Made by a program: the position numbers and the translations under genes
IMG/VR virus record: IMGVR_UViG_2778261375_000003
Source of the DNA: a virus
Lineage: Duplodnaviria > Heunggongvirae > Uroviricota > Caudoviricetes
DNA length: 64,000 bases
Reading direction: 5' to 3' (one strand)
The notes under the pieces: model-generated
Databases searched by the model: none
What the model was told of the DNA's origin: nothing
The model's input: the letters and a program-made list of their open reading frames with translations, nothing else
Part shown: piece after piece, positions 6 to 11,798 of the stretch
How the letters are laid out: each line of letters starts with the position of its first letter
How positions within the stretch are numbered: the stretch's first letter is position 1

Positions 6-1388
6 ATGACCTCGCTGAAATCGCTCGGTGAAATGGCCGGGATGGCGCGGGACAAAATCGGATCGAATCTTGCGGACGGACTGGCGGGGCAGATTGATAA
101 CCTGCGCAAAAAGATAATTGAAAATTTTCCCAAAATTGAAGTCACCATCACAAAGGTCATAAAGGGGATCCTCTGGCTGGGTGAGATAGTCGGGCGGGTA
201 GCATTTCGGATAGTCGATGGTGTCGGAGATATCATCGAGTGGTGGGGGAAACTGGATGCCGAAACGAAAACCCTGATAGAGGTTATCGGCGGTCTGGTTG
301 TCGCCATGCGGATACTTAACTCTACTTTCTGGATGTCACCTATAGGGCTGATTACCGGTCTGATCGTGGCTCTCGGTCTCTTGTGGGAAGACTACAAAAC
401 ATGGAAAGAAGGCGGTAACAGTCTTATCGACTGGGAAAAATGGCAACCGGCAATAGATAAAGCGAAGGATGCGATCACCTGGCTTCGTGACCACCTTCTG
501 GAACTAAAAGATGGTGTTGGCGGCTGGCAAAATGCACTGGAAATCCTTGGTACATTCATCGCGGGTGTCTGGGTATCCAGGGTTCTGGGGGCTTTCGGGA
601 AAATATCAGGTTTGCCGGTCCCGCCGTGGTTAAAAGGCTGGATGGCTTATGCTGCGTATTTGTACTCTGATCGCGAAAATATTGGTGCCAGTGCGAAGTC
701 ATCCTGGGATTACACGAAACAAAATATTGGAGATTCATTGCGCTGGCTTGGCATTGATACCGATTTTGGTCGTAATCCTCATACCGTAAAAGGCGCAAAT
801 ATTCAGTCAGATATTCCAGGTGCTGAGCCGGAACAATATGCACAGGCTACGAAACGAGGAGAACGGAATAACAATCCGGGAAACCTTAATTTTGCTGGTC
901 AGGCAGGGGCTTCTCTTGAACGCCCGGGCGGGCGATTTGCCAGATTTGAAACTGCCTTTGATGGATTACGGGCTCTTGCTCGTCAGTTAATGCTGTACGC
1001 CGGACGGGGAATAAACAGTGTGGAGAAAATTATCTCTACCTGGGCACCTGCGTCTGATAATAACAACACAACAGCGTATATCAGGGCTGTATCGCAACGA
1101 CTGGGAGTGGATCCCCGGGCTGCCCTGAATATGAGCGATCCGCAAACCATGTCAGCATTGATGAGCAGCATTATCCAGCATGAGAATGGAAGAAATATCT
1201 ATTCTCGAGAGCTGATTAATAAGGCTGCCGTGGCGGGAATTAGTGGCAAAGTGACAGAGGTTAACCAGCAAAATACCTACCACATTTACGGTGGCGGAGA
1301 TCCGCACGCTGTCGGTAATGAGGTTGCACGTCGGCAACAGTCTGCAAATGCTCAGGTCATGCGAAGTAATCAGGTGAGGGTGGGTTAG
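6..1388 (+). CDS. phage tail protein (tape-measure or DNA-circulation-like), probably 5'-truncated at window edge
   Basis: Reading frame is open to the window start; hydrophobic segments then a soluble C-terminal region; stop overlaps next start (TAGTG); sits directly upstream of coupled baseplate genes. Confidence 0.45.
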   Translation: MTSLKSLGEMAGMARDKIGSNLADGLAGQIDNLRKKIIENFPKIEVTITKVIKGILWLGEIVGRVAFRIVDGVGDIIEWWGKLDAETKTLIEVIGGLVVAMRILNSTFWMSPIGLITGLIVALGLLWEDYKTWKEGGNSLIDWEKWQPAIDKAKDAITWLRDHLLELKDGVGGWQNALEILGTFIAGVWVSRVLGAFGKISGLPVPPWLKGWMAYAAYLYSDRENIGASAKSSWDYTKQNIGDSLRWLGIDTDFGRNPHTVKGANIQSDIPGAEPEQYAQATKRGERNNNPGNLNFAGQAGASLERPGGRFARFETAFDGLRALARQLMLYAGRGINSVEKIISTWAPASDNNNTTAYIRAVSQRLGVDPRAALNMSDPQTMSALMSSIIQHENGRNIYSRELINKAAVAGISGKVTEVNQQNTYHIYGGGDPHAVGNEVARRQQSANAQVMRSNQVRVG

Positions 1389-1975
1389 TGGATATTCTCT
1401 CTACACTTTTTCATCAGCAGAGCAGAAAAATAGGAATGATTGTTCCCAGTGTTGTTATTTCAGAGAAGCATACAGATATGCTTGAAATAACAGAGCATCC
1501 GGTAGAGGTCGGGGCCGCTGTCGCTGATCATGCCTATAAAAAACCGTCAGAAGTGGTGATGGAGGTTGGTTTCGCCGGTGGCGGCGCATTGCTGGATTTT
1601 GCCAGTAACCTGACGGCTACCAGCCTGCTCGGCCTGAGTCCTCAGCAGACGTATCAGGAGCTACTGGGTCTGCAGGAAAGCCGTATCCCCTTCGATGTGG
1701 TAACCGGTAAACGGCTGTACAGCAACATGTTGATCCGGGCGCTGGAAGTGACGACGGACAAGACAACCGAAAACGTCCTGTCCGCCGTCCTCACCCTGAG
1801 GGAGGTCATTATCTCCCGGACACAGCAGATTACCGTCGCGGATAAAACCAACATGAAGGAAGGGGCCAGCACGTCGGCGGTACAGAACAGCGGCAACAAA
1901 ACCACAAAGCCTCCAGATACTTCACTGCTGAAAAGCATCACGGGTAACGTGGCGTCATTACTGGGGGGCGGCTAA
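1388..1975 (+). CDS. tail-module protein, function unknown
   Basis: 195-aa ORF translationally coupled on both sides (TAGTG, TAATG) inside the tail operon. Confidence 0.4.
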   Translation: MDILSTLFHQQSRKIGMIVPSVVISEKHTDMLEITEHPVEVGAAVADHAYKKPSEVVMEVGFAGGGALLDFASNLTATSLLGLSPQQTYQELLGLQESRIPFDVVTGKRLYSNMLIRALEVTTDKTTENVLSAVLTLREVIISRTQQITVADKTNMKEGASTSAVQNSGNKTTKPPDTSLLKSITGNVASLLGGG

Positions 1976-2277
1976 TGACAATTCAGGAAATTCCGCTGAC
2001 AGCGGACAACCAGCAGTTCTGCATCGTCCTGGGTGGTGTCACCTGGCGGATTAGCATCATATGGCGCGATCTGTACTGGATTATGGACCTGCAGAACGAC
2101 AGAGGGGAGCCGGTAATCTCCGGTATTCCTCTCGTCACTGGTGCTGACCTGCTGGCGCAGTACGCCTGTATGGGGCTTGGTTTTAAGCTGGTGGTGGTCT
2201 GTGATGACAACACACAGGATTACCCCACAAAAACTGACCTGGGCGGTCGCAGCCATTTACTGGTATCAACGGAGTAA
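1975..2277 (+). CDS. hypothetical tail-module protein
   Basis: 100-aa ORF coupled to flanking tail genes; no recognisable motif. Confidence 0.35.
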   Translation: MTIQEIPLTADNQQFCIVLGGVTWRISIIWRDLYWIMDLQNDRGEPVISGIPLVTGADLLAQYACMGLGFKLVVVCDDNTQDYPTKTDLGGRSHLLVSTE

Positions 2278-2279
2278 GC

Positions 2280-3347
2280 ATGTCACAGAACTGGATGAGA
2301 CATTTCGAGCTGCAGCTTGTGGACGGGAACGGTCAGGGAATTGAGCTAAGTGATTTCAAAGTCACCTTTACGATCGACTGGTTCAACATCAGCAGCGCGT
2401 CCCGGGTAGGGACTATCAAAATTTATAACCTCTCGGCAGATACTGTGAACCGAATTACCGGGCAAGAGTTTTCGAAAGTGCGTCTGATTGCCGGTTACGA
2501 CGGTATCGCGCCGGAGGTGTCAGCAAGCGACGTCGGGACAGTGCGGGAAGTTGACGCGGCGGACGTGGGCCAGAGTGATGGTCGCAACTACGGACTGATT
2601 TTCAGCGGTGAAATTCGCTACTCGGTTACAGGAAAAGACAGTCCGGTTGATTCCTACGTCCTGATTCAGGCAGCAGATACTGATCTGGCTTTTGCCACCA
2701 GTATAACCTCACAGACGCTGGCTGCCGGTTACACGGTCGCTGATGTAAACCGTGCGCTGATGAAAGACTTCGAAGCCAAAGGCGCGACCGAAGGCCTGAC
2801 GCCTGAAATGCCTGCTACTGTATTCCCCCGGGGGCGGGTACTCTTTGGCATGACGCGGCATCTAATGGATAACGTAGCCGGGCAATGTGGCGCAACATGG
2901 CAATTCGTGGATGGTCAGCGCCAGATGGTGGCGAATAACGAATATGTTCATGAAGCGATTGTGCTCAACAGCGCTACCGGGCTTATTGGCATGCCGCAGC
3001 AGACTATCGGTAACGGCGTAAACGTCCGCGCGCTTATTAATCCGAACATCCGGGTTAACGGACTTATTCAGCTGGATCAGGCTTCCGTGTATCGTACCGC
3101 CTTGTCGAACAACGATATCGCGATGGCCGGTGGGCAGATCACTGACCAGAACACGGACGGAAATATTACGCTAAGCGGCACCACATCGCAGCCTGCCAGC
3201 ATCGCAACGGATGGCGTTTATATTGTGCGCGGGATTATGTACACTGGCGACACAAGGGGCCAGGCGTGGTACATGGATATGATGTGCGAAGCGCGCGGTG
3301 CGGCGGATCTTCGTTCGGCGTCGTCTTTACAGCGTGAGGTAGGATAG
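2280..3347 (+). CDS. baseplate hub-like protein (Mu P / P2 gpD position)
   Basis: 355-aa ORF at the position preceding the spike gene in Mu-like order N-P-V-W-J-I-fibre; assignment by synteny only. Confidence 0.45.
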   Translation: MSQNWMRHFELQLVDGNGQGIELSDFKVTFTIDWFNISSASRVGTIKIYNLSADTVNRITGQEFSKVRLIAGYDGIAPEVSASDVGTVREVDAADVGQSDGRNYGLIFSGEIRYSVTGKDSPVDSYVLIQAADTDLAFATSITSQTLAAGYTVADVNRALMKDFEAKGATEGLTPEMPATVFPRGRVLFGMTRHLMDNVAGQCGATWQFVDGQRQMVANNEYVHEAIVLNSATGLIGMPQQTIGNGVNVRALINPNIRVNGLIQLDQASVYRTALSNNDIAMAGGQITDQNTDGNITLSGTTSQPASIATDGVYIVRGIMYTGDTRGQAWYMDMMCEARGAADLRSASSLQREVG

Positions 3348-3700
3348 TGAAAAAGTGGATTGTTATTGGACTCTGTTTCCTTCCGGGGTTCGCATTTGCT
3401 GCGAATCCTGGCGGTGTCACGCTTCAGTGTGGTGGCTACAAATTAGAGTTGATTCCTGATTCATTGTTCAGGATTAATGGTGAGACAGTTACCTCCCAGA
3501 AAATCAAAACGCTCGGCAACGGTAATGGAATGAAGGCGGATATGGGGCTTATGCCAGCCAAAGACGGTAACAATTACGGTTTCGAGTTCATTCGCCGTCC
3601 GGGTACCGAAACGCGATTCCTGAATGTCCAGCTTCTGCAGAACAGCATGGATGCGCCGAAAATCATCGGATCTTTCCCTTGTAAAAAAGTGGCTGGGTGA
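3347..3700 (+). CDS. secreted/periplasmic protein with N-terminal signal peptide (moron-like)
   Basis: N-terminus MKKWIVIGLCFLPGFAFAANP looks like a cleavable signal peptide; start overlaps hub stop; not a standard baseplate component. Confidence 0.5.
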   Translation: MKKWIVIGLCFLPGFAFAANPGGVTLQCGGYKLELIPDSLFRINGETVTSQKIKTLGNGNGMKADMGLMPAKDGNNYGFEFIRRPGTETRFLNVQLLQNSMDAPKIIGSFPCKKVAG

Positions 3701-3849
3701 AGGTAACCTGAAATTCGTAACGCCTGAAAAACAACAAAATGTGCTCTAAAAACTGTTGTTTTTTGAGACGAGCGATTACACTGCACTGACTTTTTGATGG
3801 TGGATTGCCATCGATATGCTACTTCATTAAAGCCAGGAATAACTAAAAC

Positions 3850-4581
3850 ATGAGTTTAGCGCAGCCAAAATCAGGAGAACTGTTAGATCTTCTGACTCCT
3901 TCATTAACTAAGGGTGAAAACCTTCTGAGTGAGTTTGAAATCCATCGAATCATTCGTGAAGCGAAGAAACTACCTGAACGTTATCAGGGGCTATCAATTG
4001 AAGGCTTAGCTAAGCTTGTTCTTGGTGAAATAGATGAAGGATGTTCACTCTGTGAGCGGGGGTTGAGAATAGCGCCTAACGATCCAGTTTCTTTTTGTAA
4101 CTATACGATTGCGCTGCGTAACTTAGGTTTGCATGCTCGCCAGTATGTGATGATTCAGAAAGCATCTGATTCACTTAATCCAACGATATTGGCTGAGGTT
4201 GCTACAATTTCTGCATACTGGGTTGATATCGATTTGCTTGAAAAGGTGATGCCGATGCTAACTGCAATGGAAGTACCGCGCCCTGAAGATATGGGCAAAT
4301 GGTATGACACGCTCAATTATCTGCATACCCAAAAAGATCATGCTCAGGAGCTAAAAACTATTGGGCGGCTCATGATGAACGTTGCAGAAAAGTACCGCGC
4401 TCGTCTTGCTGGCGCTCATGCTTTTTATGTAATGTCAGAACTTGATACGCTGTTCGTTGAAGTCAAAACAGACGATCCAGTGCTTCTTTCGCAGATGAAT
4501 AATGCCTTGGCTGATGAGATTATTATTGCGGGGCTTGCGGATTCAGAATGCGTCGGATGCTTTGAAGCCGGGGAACTCTAA
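3850..4581 (+). CDS. hypothetical helical protein (cassette gene 1)
   Basis: 243-aa ORF after a 150-bp AT-rich intergenic region; stop overlaps next start (TAATG); no motif I can name. Confidence 0.55.
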   Translation: MSLAQPKSGELLDLLTPSLTKGENLLSEFEIHRIIREAKKLPERYQGLSIEGLAKLVLGEIDEGCSLCERGLRIAPNDPVSFCNYTIALRNLGLHARQYVMIQKASDSLNPTILAEVATISAYWVDIDLLEKVMPMLTAMEVPRPEDMGKWYDTLNYLHTQKDHAQELKTIGRLMMNVAEKYRARLAGAHAFYVMSELDTLFVEVKTDDPVLLSQMNNALADEIIIAGLADSECVGCFEAGEL

Positions 4582-5009
4582 TGTCGGTTGAGCATACCTG
4601 TTTTCTTGAATTGGCTAAGCATTCCCTGGCTCTAAACGGTGAGATGTGGACGAGAAATGCTATTAGCCGAGCATACTATGGTATGTACCATTCCGCCTTA
4701 CGGATCACCAACAATCTGGTACCGACCGCTACACAAGATGGTGAAAAACTAAAAGGTGGAGTTCACATGCGAGTCTATACGGCCTTTTGTAGTGGTGAGG
4801 CAGCTGCACTTAACGATGTTGATGTTAACGCAGTAAAGAAAATCGGCGTTAAACTGAAAATGACGCATGCCCAACGTGTTAATTCTGATTACAAGCTTGA
4901 GCGGAAAATCAACCGGATTACCGCGAGAAGTGTAATTCTGGATGCGGAAGAGGTCGATGCAATCGTTAATCAATTACTGAAGATTGGTGATGACTCGTTA
5001 ACTGCATAA
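4581..5009 (+). CDS. hypothetical protein with R-x6-H (RAYYGMYH) HEPN-like motif (cassette gene 2)
   Basis: 142-aa ORF coupled to gene 1; Arg-x6-His inside an aromatic-rich helix; followed by a strong intrinsic terminator. Confidence 0.55.
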   Translation: MSVEHTCFLELAKHSLALNGEMWTRNAISRAYYGMYHSALRITNNLVPTATQDGEKLKGGVHMRVYTAFCSGEAAALNDVDVNAVKKIGVKLKMTHAQRVNSDYKLERKINRITARSVILDAEEVDAIVNQLLKIGDDSLTA

Positions 5010-5029
5010 GCTGAAATTTCTCAAAATTC

Positions 5030-5056
5030 AAACCCGCCACTTGGCGGGTTTTTTGC
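5030..5056 (+). terminator. rho-independent terminator
   Basis: Perfect hairpin ACCCGCCA-CTT-TGGCGGGT followed by a T-run, 23 nt after the stop at 5009. Confidence 0.7.
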
Positions 5057-5073
5057 TTTCTGGAGCCTACTAA

Positions 5074-5826
5074 ATGGCAGTATCTGACCAGACCCGCAGC
5101 GGCGACCTTGCCGAAACATTTAAATCTGAACGGGAAACAACAAAGAACCAGATCCGTGTCGCCTTGCCTGGCATTGTTCAGTCATTCGCTCCTGATGCGG
5201 TGACGGCGGTTGTACAGCCTGCTATCCGTTACGTTGAAATTGATAACGACGGCAACCGCATTACCAAAAATTACCCATTGCTGGTGGATGTGCCAGTGGT
5301 ATTCCCGCGTGGCGGAGGCTGTACGCTAACGTTTCCAGTTAAAGCCGGTGATGAATGTTTGGTGATTTTTGCCGATCGTTGTATTGATTTCTGGTGGCAG
5401 AGTGGCGGGATACAGGAGCCGGTCGATGACAGAATGCATGATTTATCGGATGCGTTTTGTATTGTCGGTCCCCAGTCGCAGGCAAGGAAGATTAGCGGTA
5501 TTAATACCAGTGCCACACAGTTGCGTAGTGATGACGGCAGCACCTATTTTGAGCTTAATCCTGATACCAGGAAAATTAAAATTGTCGCTCCGGGGGGCCT
5601 TGATGTGGTTGCCCCTCTGGCTGATTTTTCTGAGAAAGTAACCATTCATGGCCTGTTAACCTGGATGGGAGGCATGGTGGGGTCTGTTGTTTCTGGTGTG
5701 GCTTCAAAAATCACTGGTGCTGTTGAGTTTTTGGGTAGCGTGAAGGCTAACGGCAAGCCAATCGATGATACGCACACTCATGGTGGTGTTCAGCGCGGTG
5801 GAAGCAATACCGACGGAGTAAAATGA
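5074..5826 (+). CDS. baseplate spike protein (gpV / Mu gp45-like)
   Basis: OB-fold-like N-terminal region and C-terminal HTHGG motif typical of V-type spikes; first gene of a coupled V-W-J-I block. Confidence 0.6.
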   Translation: MAVSDQTRSGDLAETFKSERETTKNQIRVALPGIVQSFAPDAVTAVVQPAIRYVEIDNDGNRITKNYPLLVDVPVVFPRGGGCTLTFPVKAGDECLVIFADRCIDFWWQSGGIQEPVDDRMHDLSDAFCIVGPQSQARKISGINTSATQLRSDDGSTYFELNPDTRKIKIVAPGGLDVVAPLADFSEKVTIHGLLTWMGGMVGSVVSGVASKITGAVEFLGSVKANGKPIDDTHTHGGVQRGGSNTDGVK

Positions 5827-6179
5827 TGCGATACAGACGTGAAGACGCCGATGGCGATTACACCTTTGGCAGCGGTGATGACACCTGGCTGATTAACTCA
5901 CCGGAGGCCGTGGCGCAGGCGGTAAAAACGCGATTCGAATTGTGGTATGGGCAATGGTTTCTCGACACCACCGAGGGGACTCCGTGGATCCAGTCCGTAC
6001 TCGGTAAGCAGAAGCCGGAAACCTACAACCTAGCGATCAGAAAACGCATTCTGGAAACGCAGGGCGTTAAATCAATCCTCTCTTTCAATACGACGGTGGA
6101 TACCACGACCCGACGTGTCATGTTTTCCGCTGAAATCGACACTCTCTATGGAATAACGACTGTTACATCGGAGGCGTAA
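5823..6179 (+). CDS. baseplate protein (W / gp25 position)
   Basis: 118-aa ORF overlapping V stop (ATGA) and J start (TAATG); assignment by position. Confidence 0.45.
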   Translation: MMRYRREDADGDYTFGSGDDTWLINSPEAVAQAVKTRFELWYGQWFLDTTEGTPWIQSVLGKQKPETYNLAIRKRILETQGVKSILSFNTTVDTTTRRVMFSAEIDTLYGITTVTSEA

Positions 6180-7378
6180 TGGCTCTGAACCTTGATTCTC
6201 TCGGTTTATCTGCAAAGGTAACCGCGGAGGGGATCAGTGCGCCTGATTATCAGACGATACTCAGCACCCTGATTAGCTATTTTCAGCAGATTTATGGCAG
6301 TGATGCCTACCTCGAACCGGACAGCAAAGACGGCCAGATGGTGGCTCTGATGGCGCTGGCGATTCATGATGCCAATAATATGGCGATAACTGTCTACAAC
6401 TGTTTTTCACCGGCAACCGGCTATGGGGCTGCACTGACCAGTAACGTGAAAATAAATGGTATTTCACGTAAAGGCGCGACGAATTCTACGGTTGATTTGC
6501 TTCTTACAGGAACTGCCGGGGCAACCATCATTAATGGCAGCGTGAAAGACAGTAATAATGTGATATGGCGTTTGCCTGCTTCAGTGGTGGTCGGCGTGGA
6601 TGGTACAGTGATGGTGACCGCAACATGTTCCGTCAGTGGTGCAGTGGCGGCGCTGGCTGGAACTATCACTGAAATTAATACGCCAACCCGTGGCTGGATT
6701 TCGGTAACCAATCCTGCTGCAGCTACTGTAGGCACTCCAGCAGAAACTGATGCTGAGTTACGTATCCGCCAGTCGCAAAGTGTTGCGTTGCCATCAATAA
6801 CCCCATTTGAAGCACTGGATGGTGCTGTTTCTAATGTTGCCGGTGTAACCCGCCACAAACTCTATGAAAACGATACTGGTTCGGAGGACGGTAACGGGTT
6901 ACCGCCACACTCTGTTGCTGTAATTGTGGATGGTGGTGATGTGACGGATATTGCTCAGGCTATCAGAGGGAATAAAGGCCAGGGGACAGCCACTCACGGT
7001 ACAACATCCGTTACGGTTCTGGATAAATACGGCAATCCCCATGTAATCAAATTCTCGCGTTCCAGTGATGTACCTGTTTATGCCCGGATTAAATTAAAAG
7101 TTTTTACGGGTTATACCTCACAGATAGGGCAGCAGATCCAGCAGGCTATTTCCGACTATATCAATAGTCTGATGATTGGTGATTCGGTCCTTTTAAGTCG
7201 CATTTACTCACCGGCGAATCTTGGCGTGGTGAGTGGCGGGAATGCACGCTATTACGATATTCAGGAACTGACGATTGGGAAATCCCCGGGGGCTTTGTCG
7301 TCATCAAACATTGATATCAGATACAACGAATCTGCGTCCTGTACCCCGGAAAATATCGTTATAACGGTGGAGTCATGA
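6179..7378 (+). CDS. baseplate J-like protein
   Basis: 399-aa ORF at the J position, coupled to W and I. Confidence 0.55.
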   Translation: MALNLDSLGLSAKVTAEGISAPDYQTILSTLISYFQQIYGSDAYLEPDSKDGQMVALMALAIHDANNMAITVYNCFSPATGYGAALTSNVKINGISRKGATNSTVDLLLTGTAGATIINGSVKDSNNVIWRLPASVVVGVDGTVMVTATCSVSGAVAALAGTITEINTPTRGWISVTNPAAATVGTPAETDAELRIRQSQSVALPSITPFEALDGAVSNVAGVTRHKLYENDTGSEDGNGLPPHSVAVIVDGGDVTDIAQAIRGNKGQGTATHGTTSVTVLDKYGNPHVIKFSRSSDVPVYARIKLKVFTGYTSQIGQQIQQAISDYINSLMIGDSVLLSRIYSPANLGVVSGGNARYYDIQELTIGKSPGALSSSNIDIRYNESASCTPENIVITVES

Positions 7379-8055
7379 GCAAATACACCGAACTAATCAC
7401 AAACTACCACGCCACCAAACCTAAATTTCTTGCACATGTTGATCTGATGACCCGGCCGCTTATTGATGTTGCGGCTGCCACCAGAGGGCTGATTACTGCA
7501 TTTGATATTGACTCTGCGGTTGGTGTGCAACTTGACATTCTGGGATTGTGGATCGGACGTAGCCGTGTTGTCAGCCAGCCTATCTCAGGTGTCTATTTCA
7601 GCTGGGATACCGACGGGCTTGGATATGATCAGGGGGTATGGCAGGGACCATACGATCCTGATTCCGGATACATGTACCTCAGCGATGAAACTTATCGTGT
7701 CATTCTTAAAGCGAAGATTGCGATTAATAACTGGGACGGACGGAATGATTCGCTTCCGGCAATTCTTGACGCTGCAACAGCAGGATCCGGGCTGCGAATG
7801 CAGATAGTCGATAACCAGGACATGACGATATCGGTCTGGGTCTTTCCTGATACTGATATTTCAGATGTATCGCGTGAGTTAATTGCGGCAATTAAACAGG
7901 GGTATCTCACAGTAAAAGTCGCCGGGGTATGGGCGGGTGGCATTGAAACACCTTCGGTGGAAACCCCATCGGAAGGCTCAAAATTTTTTGGTTTTGATAT
8001 GGATAACGAATTCATCAGTGGTTTTGATGTAGGAGCATGGGGAGTATTACTCTGA
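7375..8055 (+). CDS. tail protein I-like (baseplate wedge)
   Basis: 226-aa ORF at the I position; stop overlaps fibre start (TGATG). Confidence 0.5.
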
Positions 8056-8828
8056 TGGCGAAAAATGACTTTAAAGCGTTTGCAACGGATCGAAATGCCA
8101 ATGTTATATCGCAGGAGGAATGGGAAGCGTTGCCCGCGCTTTTATCCGGATTTACAGCAGGGAAAGCCTCCAGTGCGCAAGTCAATAAGGTTATTCGGCA
8201 GGCCAGCTTTATTGCTGCAGCTCTGGCCCAGTTTGTAAGTGATAAAACGCAACGGGATGTGCTTGATAATGGTGATCTGCCCGGTTTTGTTGAATTGCTG
8301 GGATCGGGGTTTGCTGTTGAATACCTGAGCCGCAAGAATCCGTTTGGTGATATCAAATCGGATGGCACGGTGAAAACGGCTCTCGAAAACCTTGGTTTGG
8401 GAGAAGGTTCGGCATTACCCGTTGGTGTGCCTGTCCCGTGGCCTTCCGCCACTCCGCCAACAGGCTGGCTAAAATGCAATGGTGCGGCTTTTTCTGCTGA
8501 AGAATACCCGGAACTGGCAAAGGTTTATCCGACAAATAAATTGCCTGATTTACGCGGTGAATTTATTCGTGGATGGGATGATGGGCGTGGGGTGGATTCC
8601 TCTCGTGGTTTGTTGACATCTCAAGACCATTTATTTGCTTCTCATGGGCACTGGTTTGACAAGTACTATGCGCTAACAGGTTTTGATACAACGGGAGGTC
8701 GGTTCGTAGTTACGGCTGATGCTTTCGGGGAACTTATTAAGGCAAATTCAATTTCTACGGTATCGGTTGGTGGTTCTGAAACCCGGCCGCGCAACGTCGC
8801 ATTTAACTATATCGTGAGGGCAGCCTGA
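8055..8828 (+). CDS. short tail fibre protein with tail-collar-like domain
   Basis: Start taken at ATG 8055 ([12 protein letters not shown]...); motif [22 protein letters not shown] resembles the phage tail collar domain. Confidence 0.6.
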
Positions 8829-9430
8829 TGAATAAAGCCGTATTAAATAACGAACTCATTGCCATAAAAGCGGGAGACATTACCATTTATAATTATGATG
8901 GTGAAACGCGGGAATATATTTCCACATCAACTGAATATCTTGCGGTTGGCGTCGGTATACCGGCATGCTCCTGTTTAGATGCTCCTGACTCATATAAAGC
9001 TGGTTATGCAATCTGCCGTTCTGCAGATTTTAACTCATGGGTATATGTGCCAGACCACCGTGGTGAAACGGTATATAGCACTGAAACAGGAGAATCAAAA
9101 GAAATCACAGCTCCGGGTGATTACCCTGAAAATACAACCACTATCGCCCCGTTAACGCCATTCGATAAATGGGATGGTGAGAAATGGGTGACCGATACTG
9201 AGGCACAGCATTGCGCCGCAGTAGACGCGGCAGAAGCACAGCGTCAGTCACTGATTGATACTGCAATGGCTTCCATCAGTCTGATTCAACTGAAATTGCA
9301 GGCCGGGCGGAAGCTGACGCAGGCAGAAACCACCCGACTTAACGCTGTGCTGGATTACATTGACGCGGTGACGGCAACAGATACCAGCACCGCGCCGGAT
9401 GTCATCTGGCCTGAACTGCCGGAGGCGTAG
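8828..9430 (+). CDS. tail fibre assembly chaperone
   Basis: 200-aa ORF coupled to the fibre gene (TGATG); C-terminus ...DYIDAVTATDTSTAPDVIWPELP shared with the convergent chaperone. Confidence 0.6.
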   Translation: MNKAVLNNELIAIKAGDITIYNYDGETREYISTSTEYLAVGVGIPACSCLDAPDSYKAGYAICRSADFNSWVYVPDHRGETVYSTETGESKEITAPGDYPENTTTIAPLTPFDKWDGEKWVTDTEAQHCAAVDAAEAQRQSLIDTAMASISLIQLKLQAGRKLTQAETTRLNAVLDYIDAVTATDTSTAPDVIWPELPEA

Positions 9431-9863: not shown

Positions 9864-11798
9864 TTAACAGCCTAACGCTAAAAATGAAGCGCCGAGGCCA
9901 GGAGTACTGGCTCTGGATATAAATTTAACCGGGTCGGGACTAAAACCTGCACAGGCAATATAACCAACAGCCCCGCTATCTGGTGTGTAGTCTTGTGAGA
10001 CCAAAACACGCAGACATCTGTTTGGAAATGCAATCGGGAAATGGGTTACTACATCCTGTGCAATGCCTGGTGCGCCGATTGAGCCCCACTGAAGAATAAA
10101 ACCTGATGGTAATTTTTGATATCCAGTACCTGAAACAGAAAGCGTGAAGCTACCCATATCAGGTATCTGATTCGCCCCTGTCCCTACATTCCTTTTAGCC
10201 GCTTCTCCCAAACCAAGGTATTGGATAACGGCCAGTGTGCTTGTTTTAGCCAGAATATCGCGACCGACTGACGTTAAATCAGTCTGAGCTACCGTATCCT
10301 TACCAGTGAAATAAGGCAGTTTGTTTGCACCAGTCGCAAGGGCAGCGAGAGCGGTTAAAGTTGCATCCAGAGGCTGTTTGCCTGCCAGCGCATTTGTCAT
10401 TGTTGTCGCAAAGTTCGGGTCATTGCCAAGTGCTGCGGCAAGCTCATTCAGGGTATCAAGAGCTTCTGGTGATGAACCAACCAATGCGGATATGGCAGCT
10501 CTTACATAAGCGGTCGTAGCAATCTGCGTGTTATTCGTACCCTGTGCAGCGGTAGGCGCAGTAGGGACACCCGTTAATGCAGGGCTTGCCAAAGGCGCTT
10601 TGAGAGCCAAGGCATTGTTGATAGTTGTGCTGTAATTCGGGTCGTTATTGATCGCAGCAGCTATTTCTTTAAGCGTATCCAGTGTGCCAGGCGCACCGTT
10701 GATAAGTGCAGTTATAGCTGCCTTAACAAAGGCTGTATTTGCGATCTGCGTGTTATTCGTACCCTGTGCAGCGGTAGGCGCAGTAGGTATTCCCGTTAAT
10801 GCAGGACTTGCTAAAGGAGCTTTAAGAGCCAGAGCATTGTTGATAGTTGTGCTGAAATTCGGGTCGTTATTGATCGCAGCAGCTATTTCTTTAAGCGTAT
10901 CCAGTGTGCCAGGTGCACCGTTGATAAGTGCCGTTATAGCTGCCTTAACAAAGGCTGTATTTGCGATCTGCGTGCTATTTGTACCTTGCGCTGCCGTCGG
11001 CGCGGTTGGCGTTCCTGTCAGACTCGGGCTTTCTATTGGCGCTTTGGTATCAGCCAGATCTTTTATAGACTTAACAGCTTTAGGGGTAGCCGCCATTGTT
11101 TCGCTGTCGCTGTTAGTTGCGCTACTGAGCTGAACTAATCCCTTTTGCGTTGTGCTTGCATCCTGTGCCGTATACTTGCTTTTCGCCAGATCGTAGGCTT
11201 TTTTAACTGCCAGCGAACTTGCAGCAACATCACTTCTGGTACTGGTTACAGAGTCTGAAATATCAATGCCGATCGAGCGGTTGATACGCTCGGATGTATC
11301 AATCATCTCCTGGGTAATGGCAGATACACTAGCAGGGATATTCACCGTACAAACAAGCAGCTCCCCATCTCCTAACTGATATGAATCGGTATAGGTTCTG
11401 GCAACAAATTCAGCCGCATGAATATGTGACGCGGTATTCACCTGGTAGGTATCTTCTCCAAGGAGGTATCTTCCCTTCAGCACAATTGCATATTTCTTGC
11501 CTGCACTAAGTGCAAGAGAAATATCCTTACGTTGCTGAATAGTTACCTGGTAAAATTCACCAATATCCACCGACGCCGCGCCTGCGGTTTTATCACCATC
11601 CACTGAGGTAATTAACAGGTTCATCCCACCGCCAGGCTTAGGTAAGAAACCGGCATAAAATCCCGGGTCAACAATCCCCCTGAATTTTCGGTTTAGCGCG
11701 GCTGACAGATATGGTTCGTGGTATTGCACATCGGCCACCAGAGCCAACGACTCGGATGATGGGTAAGTAACCGATGTAACAACTGTAACGTCATTCAT
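9864..11798 (-). CDS. tail fibre protein (S-like, long fibre)
   Basis: Start taken at MNDVTVV (ATG about 11798, AAGGA upstream); conserved [21 protein letters not shown] fibre motif; three tandem copies of a roughly 74-aa repeat ([30 protein letters not shown]...). Confidence 0.75.

Follow-up and report, generated by a model that had tools for sequence, protein, structure and literature searches.

The 64,000-nucleotide stretch of viral DNA analyzed here (IMG/VR record IMGVR_UViG_2778261375_000003, called the window below) carries a pair of small coupled genes, named A and B, between the baseplate hub gene and the spike gene of a contractile-tail module. The hub–spike interval is a recombinational cargo slot, a hotspot of swapped genes, and the A/B pair is one of the cargoes that it holds. 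Gene A (243 aa; positions 3850–4581, + strand) encodes a TPR-like alpha-solenoid covering residues ~7–181, followed by a beta-beta-alpha-beta domain at residues 186–240. Gene B (142 aa; positions 4581–5009, + strand) encodes a protein with a HEPN fold, probably of the UPF0332/PF05168 type (HEPN-T, “class II”). We propose that B is an effector and A its partner, acting as an antitoxin or as a sensor, and we give an even chance to the reading that the pair is a self-contained mobile module, either toxin-antitoxin-like or of the abortive-infection kind.

The AlphaFold model of B was confident (predicted local distance difference test score, pLDDT, of 91), with helices at residues 5–17, 21–43, 61–78, 82–104, and 112–132. 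The four-helix up-and-down arrangement of HEPN domains was present in this model, in agreement with the original prediction, which was made from the sequence of the window and had recognized a HEPN active-site pattern in B. Searches with B itself were less informative, with no Pfam match at E ≤ 1, no NCBIfam match, and nothing significant in a single-sequence search of the PDB. The best PADLOC match, HEPN_IX, was marginal (E = 0.009). With a superfamily profile including the divergent relatives found in the slot, 9xbd/9xbc (“HEPN domain-containing protein”) was retrieved at E = 3e-6 and 2hsb at E = 7e-6. One relative of B (L006_123) scored 19.3 bits against PF05168, for a cut-off of 22, and the source databases give some members of the family the name UPF0332 or HEPN, or a PF05168 assignment (JGI “UPF0332 family”). 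The close family of B amounted to approximately 30 clusters at 90% identity, all from Enterobacterales, and the wider family was confined to Enterobacterales, Aeromonas, Vibrio, and their temperate phages.

Thirteen residues (E21, R25, S29, R30, Y32, Y33, H37, P48, L92, R99, D103, Y104, and L106) were invariant across relatives sharing 25–30% identity with B, and H62 was nearly invariant. The HEPN active site had been placed in the motif RAYYGMYH (R30-x6-H37), an assignment that we do not retain. The motif lies on helix 2, where HEPN proteins of the UPF0332/PF05168 type have their “sRAYYamfH” signature, and this signature varies, with Arg replaced by Thr in AF0298 and His replaced by Tyr in 9xbd. 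The canonical helix-4 position of B reads R99-VNS-D103-Y104, which is devoid of His and does not conform to Rx4-6H. In HEPN-T domains an Asp is found in place of the canonical His, and a conserved His is present elsewhere (Anantharaman 2013, Table 1; PMC3710099). This is the situation observed in B, where R99, D103, Y104, and H37 are all invariant. Judging from the helix topology alone, H37, H62, R99, D103, and Y104 would cluster. Yao et al. described class II HEPN proteins as devoid of RX4HXY and kept them apart from the active RX4HXY HepT class (PMC7641770).

Gene A had been described as an all-helical protein showing no motif that could be placed, a description that has to be amended. The model of A was confident (pLDDT 90), with ten helices between residues 7 and 181 preceding the C-terminal beta-beta-alpha-beta domain, and the profile of A matched consensus TPR proteins over residues 58–112. 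A single-sequence search against Pfam, NCBIfam, PADLOC, and the PDB returned nothing significant, and two uncharacterized phage proteins of the same size were found in BFVD. When the profile was searched against 1.84 billion representatives, about 55 of the best 150 matches were full-length relatives of approximately 220–276 aa, the others being generic TPR repeats. No informative fusion was present among these 150 matches, the relatives standing alone. The possibility that A is a disguised nucleotidyltransferase was rejected on the basis of the TPR fold and of the absence of a GS…DxD motif.

The hub–spike interval was compared in a sample composed of 80 IMG/VR loci, fetched via the spike protein, and 10 annotated loci; 84 were usable, and counts out of 84 refer to this sample. 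The hub gene, the spike gene, A, B, and orfS (the gene following the hub gene) were placed in these loci by tblastn, and the intervening open reading frames (ORFs) were clustered into cargo types. The hub gene (2280–3347, + strand; phrog_196, E = 5e-89; PF22759 E217_gp41, E = 6e-5) constitutes the left conserved flank of the variable region, with 83–100% identity across the 84 loci. The spike gene (5074–5826, + strand; PF18352, E = 4e-43, plus an Apex motif), for which 595 relatives were found in IMG/VR, is the right conserved flank. The hub-to-spike distance varied from 538 to 1886 bp and at least 13 types of alternative cargo were distinguished, which bears out the earlier view of this interval as an accessory “moron” position. 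The pair was missing from 50 of the 84 loci, other cargo being present instead, and the base composition of the A/B pair is foreign to the operon. The GC content of A and B was 44%, and their GC content at third codon positions (GC3) was 0.38–0.41 as compared to 0.44–0.64 in the flanking tail genes.

An accessory role in tail structure or assembly, such as that of a TPR chaperone with a co-factor for baseplate maturation, might be suggested by the location of the pair between hub and spike, by its proximity to tape-measure genes in several phage types, and by the fact that TPR proteins are often chaperones. We consider such a role very improbable. The 50 related tail modules devoid of the pair, in which hub and spike are 89–100% identical, carry unrelated genes at this place; the foreign base composition also argues against it, as do the copies situated outside structural loci and the one in a chromosomal islet, described below. 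This explanation is largely excluded by the patchy distribution and by the existence of non-tail locations.

Among 5426 complete Escherichia coli genomes, 336 (approximately 6%) matched the query, mostly over the slot flanks, and the cassette of the window was found in just 32–33. The A/B pair is present in approximately 10% of the E. coli prophages of the SEN34/Brunovirus-like type. The slot also exists in Klebsiella, Enterobacter, Pantoea, and Salmonella.

The translational coupling of A and B announced by the original prediction was verified, the two genes overlapping as TAATG at position 4581. An A-like gene paired with a B-like gene was found in 34 of the 84 loci and was represented by at least six sequence types (243 + 142, 243 + 140, 258 + 123, 257 + 131, 256 + 131, and 257 + 126 aa). 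Two A-like clusters were homologous over their full length (hhalign probability of 96.6%, E = 6e-10). In all 16 variants examined, an A-like partner was present, the genes were co-directional with A first, and the junction ranged from −20 to +8 nucleotides. A diverged faster than B, with 31–40% versus 48–58% identity in the same pairs. The ratio of nonsynonymous to synonymous substitution rates (dN/dS) was 0.05–0.13 for A and B, indicating strong purifying selection.

The pair was located in at least nine different genomic backbones and showed the generic type II-like layout, being coupled, co-directional, and mobile. In a Lelliottia lambda-like prophage it lies between the tape measure and distal tail genes, and in an Aeromonas Mu-like prophage between the tape measure and gpN. 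Two siphoviruses carry it upstream of the tape measure; in a Serratia myovirus it follows the sheath and tube genes, and in Dickeya it follows the spike. Klebsiella phage Chronis has it in the nin-like region, and a Vibrio P2-like phage between portal/ogr and gpA. One copy occupies a chromosomal islet with no phage genes nearby. The gpA–portal locus of the Vibrio P2-like phage is the old/tin locus, a defence hotspot shown experimentally (PMC9122126). The pair recurs in the tail clusters of at least six unrelated backbones, beside tape-measure, hub, or spike genes (loci L091, L092, L094, L095, L101, and L108), and this recurrence could reflect either a chance preference of morons for tail operons or a functional constraint. 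In Klebsiella phage ST405-OXA48phi1.3 (L101, 4053–4396), the B-like gene is annotated as two ORFs of 43 and 71 aa next to an intact A-like gene, which suggests a frameshifted B or a mis-annotation.

Other cargoes found in the same interval elsewhere include a YafO toxin pair, DUF2335, DUF4282, and “HMG-box” proteins. The YafO-family toxin (138 aa) was present in eight of the 84 loci, preceded by an uncharacterized 190-aa protein which is not YafN-like (L003, 2670–3660; L029; L030). Another cargo, of 165–173 aa, displays a canonical HEPN-like R-N-N-L-F-H-G-G motif (L008, 1977–2489; L073, 3920–4441). No Pfam or PADLOC match was obtained for this RNNLFHGG protein, which may be a second, unrelated HEPN candidate.

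Considering the YafO toxin-antitoxin pair found in the slot of other prophages, it might be asked whether the A/B pair is purely an addiction module which stabilizes the prophage or the slot and plays no role against other phages. The coupling of the two genes with the putative antitoxin first, and the travelling of the pair as a selfish unit between many loci, would be in keeping with this. We find it fairly unlikely, since A (243 aa, TPR-like, without a DNA-binding domain) is unlike the typical labile antitoxins and a chromosomally integrated prophage scarcely needs post-segregational killing. The faster divergence of A, and the fact that six or more sequence types share one slot, look more like arms-race diversification.

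At the left edge of the slot, DNA similarity between loci stopped at the last codons of orfS (…GSFPCKKV), and at the right edge it resumed exactly at the stem of a terminator. The limits of the slot are thus the 3′ end of orfS on one side and the terminator plus the spike ribosome-binding site on the other. Inside these limits each cargo carries its own upstream region, and the cassette is not tied to particular alleles of orfS or of the spike gene. A piece of 80 bp from the 3′ end of orfS (positions 3626–3706 of the window) was 90–97% identical to unannotated sites in a few E. coli genomes showing no other match to the 2-kb query. These isolated matches may be remnants of the slot boundary.

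The gene orfS (3347–3700, + strand; phrog_3443, E = 1e-46) encodes a 117-aa protein with a Sec-type signal peptide, which could be read directly from the sequence (MKKWIVIGLCFLPGFAFA/ANPGG) as previously noticed. The inclusion of this secreted protein in the insert was an error. It is a conserved backbone gene, because it was present in 71 of the 84 loci whatever the type of cargo and because its start is coupled to the hub stop codon (TAGTG). The N-terminal half of the protein is variable and the C-terminal half strongly conserved. In a minority of loci, orfS is swapped for a 241-aa lipoprotein annotated as “HMG-box” or for a 158-aa secreted protein, and there is therefore a second, smaller variable slot beside the first.

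The right end of the slot corresponds to an intrinsic terminator (5030–5057, + strand; AAACCCGCCA-CT-TGGCGGGTTT then TTTTGC) situated approximately 20 nucleotides upstream of the spike ATG. The hairpin at 5030–5051, with a stem of 9–10 bp including six GC pairs, and its T-run formed the top terminator-like site in 10 kb, as expected from the textbook terminator described after B. The stem was kept, with variable loop bases, in 18 of 19 sampled loci carrying different cargo. The terminator, like orfS, belongs to the slot backbone, and the idea of a promoter-to-terminator cassette forming one unit with the secreted protein cannot be maintained. This conserved terminator lies inside the late baseplate operon, which implies that late transcription either passes through it or starts anew downstream. 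The search of Rfam returned just sub-threshold terminator look-alikes, at 5030–5057.

The spacer before A (3701–3849) is indeed AT-rich, with 38% GC, and it contains the weak hairpin that had been noticed there. The hairpin (3727–3763, + strand; AAAAACAACA-N17-TGTTGTTTTT then Ts) is AT-rich, consists of a perfect 10-nucleotide inverted repeat (−16.8 kcal/mol, z = −1.6), and marks the 5′ edge of the type-1 cassette. It is kept in diverged alleles of the cassette and could serve orfS as a weak terminator, or have a regulatory role. The segment from 3727 to 3849 (+ strand) constitutes a 123-nucleotide leader, presumed to be regulatory, with a GATGG-N7-CCATC palindrome and a weak Shine-Dalgarno sequence. 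Divergence between alleles was 8–11% in the leader versus 20–42% at the synonymous sites of A, which points to a constrained regulatory element. The idea that the 150-nucleotide spacer contains a small-RNA or type III toxin-antitoxin element was rejected, as there are no tandem repeats and Rfam gave nothing above threshold. The promoter-like hexamers reported upstream of A were not recovered: no sigma-70-like site was present in 3680–3852 at a threshold of 9/12 or 8/12. In a scan of 48 loci, sigma-70-like sites were observed upstream of the cargo in 25, compared to a total of approximately 0.4 expected from the background rate in structural genes, and none was found in the cargo type carried by the window.

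The absence of a consensus promoter before A and the co-directional position of the cassette inside the late operon could point to counter-defence or host takeover. In that case B would be a non-catalytic HEPN protein, a sponge or inhibitor that binds or sequesters RNA or a nucleotide, and A an adaptor to a host immune or translation factor, both being expressed late. The recurrence of the pair inside tail clusters, the missing catalytic His of B, and the fact that HEPN was first defined as a nucleotide-binding domain fit with this explanation. It appears unlikely: R99, D103, Y104, and H37 (and nearly so H62) are invariant at 25–30% identity, as expected of an enzyme; just about one in ten of the E. 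coli prophages of this type carries the pair; copies exist at the P2 old/tin locus and in the islet without phage genes nearby; and the leader is conserved on its own.

The most economical reading, that of a mobile HEPN-based module, fits the precedents for TPR or Sel1 partners, the toxin-type cargo of the slot (YafO, RNNLFHGG), and the faster divergence of A. In the mechanism that we propose, B would be an RNA- or nucleotide-targeting toxin acting as a HEPN dimer, with an active site formed by R99, D103, and Y104 of helix 4 and by the His of helices 2 and 3 (H37 and H62). A would bind B and restrain it, in place of the MNT nucleotidyltransferase of the classical HEPN/MNT pairs. The fast-evolving TPR surface of A would make it a labile antitoxin or the sensor of a phage-derived cue. 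As an outcome, the lysogen would gain a protection of the abortive-infection or exclusion type, or the prophage would gain addiction.

Several observations weigh against this mechanism. B lacks the canonical catalytic His, neither toxicity nor RNase activity was reported for PF05168 or class II HEPN proteins in the literature that we searched, and some HEPN-T-like domains are thought to be non-catalytic, for example the one in human sacsin and the C-terminal domain of kanamycin nucleotidyltransferase (PMC3710099). A possesses none of the DNA-binding or enzymatic domains typical of antitoxins. There is no sigma-70 consensus before A in the window, and expression in the lysogen is thus putative. 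The pair had no significant match in PADLOC, NCBIfam, or Pfam, and its accessions WP_000050470 and WP_000110002 were not in the portions of the DefensePredictor tables that were searched, which is weak evidence. None of the slot cargoes matches a validated defence system; these other cargoes being uncharacterized, the slot does not count by itself as a validated hotspot of defence. The toxicity of B, its neutralization by A, the RNase chemistry, and the anti-phage role are properties that we infer.

A more specific proposal, which we consider doubtful, is that the pair founds a new phage-borne abortive-infection family, in which the TPR sensor A holds the non-canonical HEPN-T nuclease B and frees it once a protein from an infecting phage is sensed. 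The site of B, composed of R-x3-D-Y and the His of helices 2 and 3, would then be the first demonstrated class II HEPN catalytic mechanism. The placement in tail operons would then be functional: it could couple the A:B ratio to late transcription, thereby avoiding self-killing on induction, or alternatively it might reflect the sensing of tail components.

If the pair is active as a mobile toxin-antitoxin-like or abortive-infection module, it would offer the first functional handle on the widespread PF05168-type (class II) HEPN proteins and would indicate that a TPR-like protein can stand in for the MNT nucleotidyltransferase as a HEPN regulator. The hub–spike slot of SEN34/Brunovirus-like phages would join the phage hotspots worth mining, and the 12 or more other uncharacterized cargoes that it holds could be screened likewise. 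If the pair is inactive or merely selfish, it is an ordinary moron. We found no description in the literature of a hub–spike hotspot in SEN34/Brunovirus-like phages.

The slot belongs to the tail–baseplate module of a temperate, SEN34/Brunovirus-like myovirus, which covers the window from position 1 to approximately 10.2 kb. Matches to the region were found in Salmonella phage SEN34 (genus Brunovirus) and in many E. coli prophages. One prophage, 99% identical and adjoining torT, is present in E. coli A15, where both A and B are annotated as hypothetical. The first 9.4 kb encode, on the + strand, a contractile-tail baseplate module. The order of the genes is a tape measure with a lytic-transglycosylase end (6–1388), a Dit-like protein (1388–1975), a Pam3_gp18-like plug (1975–2277), the hub, the slot, and the spike, then a sheath-initiator-like gene (5823–6179) and baseplate J (6179–7378), all on the + strand, followed by a DUF2612 gene, a fibre gene, and a fibre-assembly gene. 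The original prediction that all junctions from 1388 to 9430 are short overlaps outside the slot was largely right, nearly all being of −1 or −4 nucleotides, and it did not hold for a +2 gap (2277/2280) and for an ambiguous fibre start (8037/8055). The large exceptions were the 149 nucleotides before A and the 64 nucleotides after B.

The window itself has a hybrid make-up. The Brunovirus-like tail module extends from position 1 to approximately 10,200, and the segment 10,203–64,000 corresponds to a phage-plasmid of the P1-like kind (S, R, gene 16 … dam, parB). The two parts meet in a tail-fibre invertible segment, with inverted cix/gix-like sites at 8376–8401 and 10,196–10,226 (…GAAAACCTTGGTTTGGGAGAAGG / CTTCTCCCAAACCAAGGTATTGG…). 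None of the best matches among complete E. coli genomes spanned the join, the top coverage being 91%. The window has arisen either through an invertase, as a cointegrate, or through assembly, as a chimera.

As had been stated in the original prediction, the pair matches no named system: with PADLOC-DB v2, nothing was found for A, and the marginal HEPN_IX match was the best for B. PADLOC v2 covers the Vassallo systems. Nothing relevant on UPF0332 HEPN proteins, on 9xbd/9xbc, or on the two accessions of the pair was found in the literature. Just one two-gene HEPN system, composed of a 163-aa “HEPN family nuclease” and a 252-aa partner, was retrieved from the DefensePredictor tables, and it is unrelated to the pair. 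The class II HEPN/MNT pairs (PF05168, UPF0332; 2hsb AF0298, 1ufb TT1696, 1wol ST0689, 9xbd) are among the known systems closest to the pair. In these pairs the partner is an MNT protein, whereas here it is the 243-aa TPR-like A, with no match to the nucleotidyltransferase family PF01909, and B itself stays under the PF05168 threshold. The class II pairs are archaeal or thermophile-rich, whereas the B family belongs to Enterobacterales, Aeromonas, Vibrio, and their temperate phages. The type VII HepT/MntA systems (DUF86 HEPN + MNT; SO_3166/SO_3165, PDB 5yep) are defined by RX4HXY in the toxin and GSX10DXD in the antitoxin (PMC7641770). The pair has no RX4HXY, no MNT gene, and no GSX10DXD, and neutralization by AMPylation therefore cannot apply to it.

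Partners made of helical repeats have been predicted for other HEPN families, AbiU2 being found with a Sel1-repeat gene and LA2681 fused to, or in an operon with, TPR (PMC3710099, Table 1). AbiU2 and LA2681 likewise combine a HEPN effector and a helical-repeat partner in conflict-associated loci, and they too are computational predictions. They differ from the pair in that their HEPN families keep Rx4-6H, which B does not, and neither A nor B was found to be related to them in sequence. The slot resembles the P2 old/tin and Z/fun and the P4 psu-int hotspots (Rousset 2022; Vassallo 2022) and the lambdoid morons, where conserved flanks likewise enclose alternative cargoes having their own expression signals and a deviating base composition. 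The P2 gpA–portal hotspot even holds one relative of the pair. Unlike these, the slot described here lies inside the baseplate operon of SEN34/Brunovirus-like phages, and its cargoes match no validated system. Tha, the tail-activated HEPN anti-phage protein of Staphylococcus aureus prophages, is also a prophage-borne HEPN protein and provides a working analogy for an abortive defence. Tha, however, consists of just one protein of 301 aa, in which the motif is a canonical RNSIMH. Its gene belongs to the lysogeny module, its inhibitor Ith is encoded antisense, and it shares no homology with A or B beyond the fold. All of the ingredients (a HEPN effector, a helical-repeat partner, and a prophage hotspot) are already familiar from these systems.

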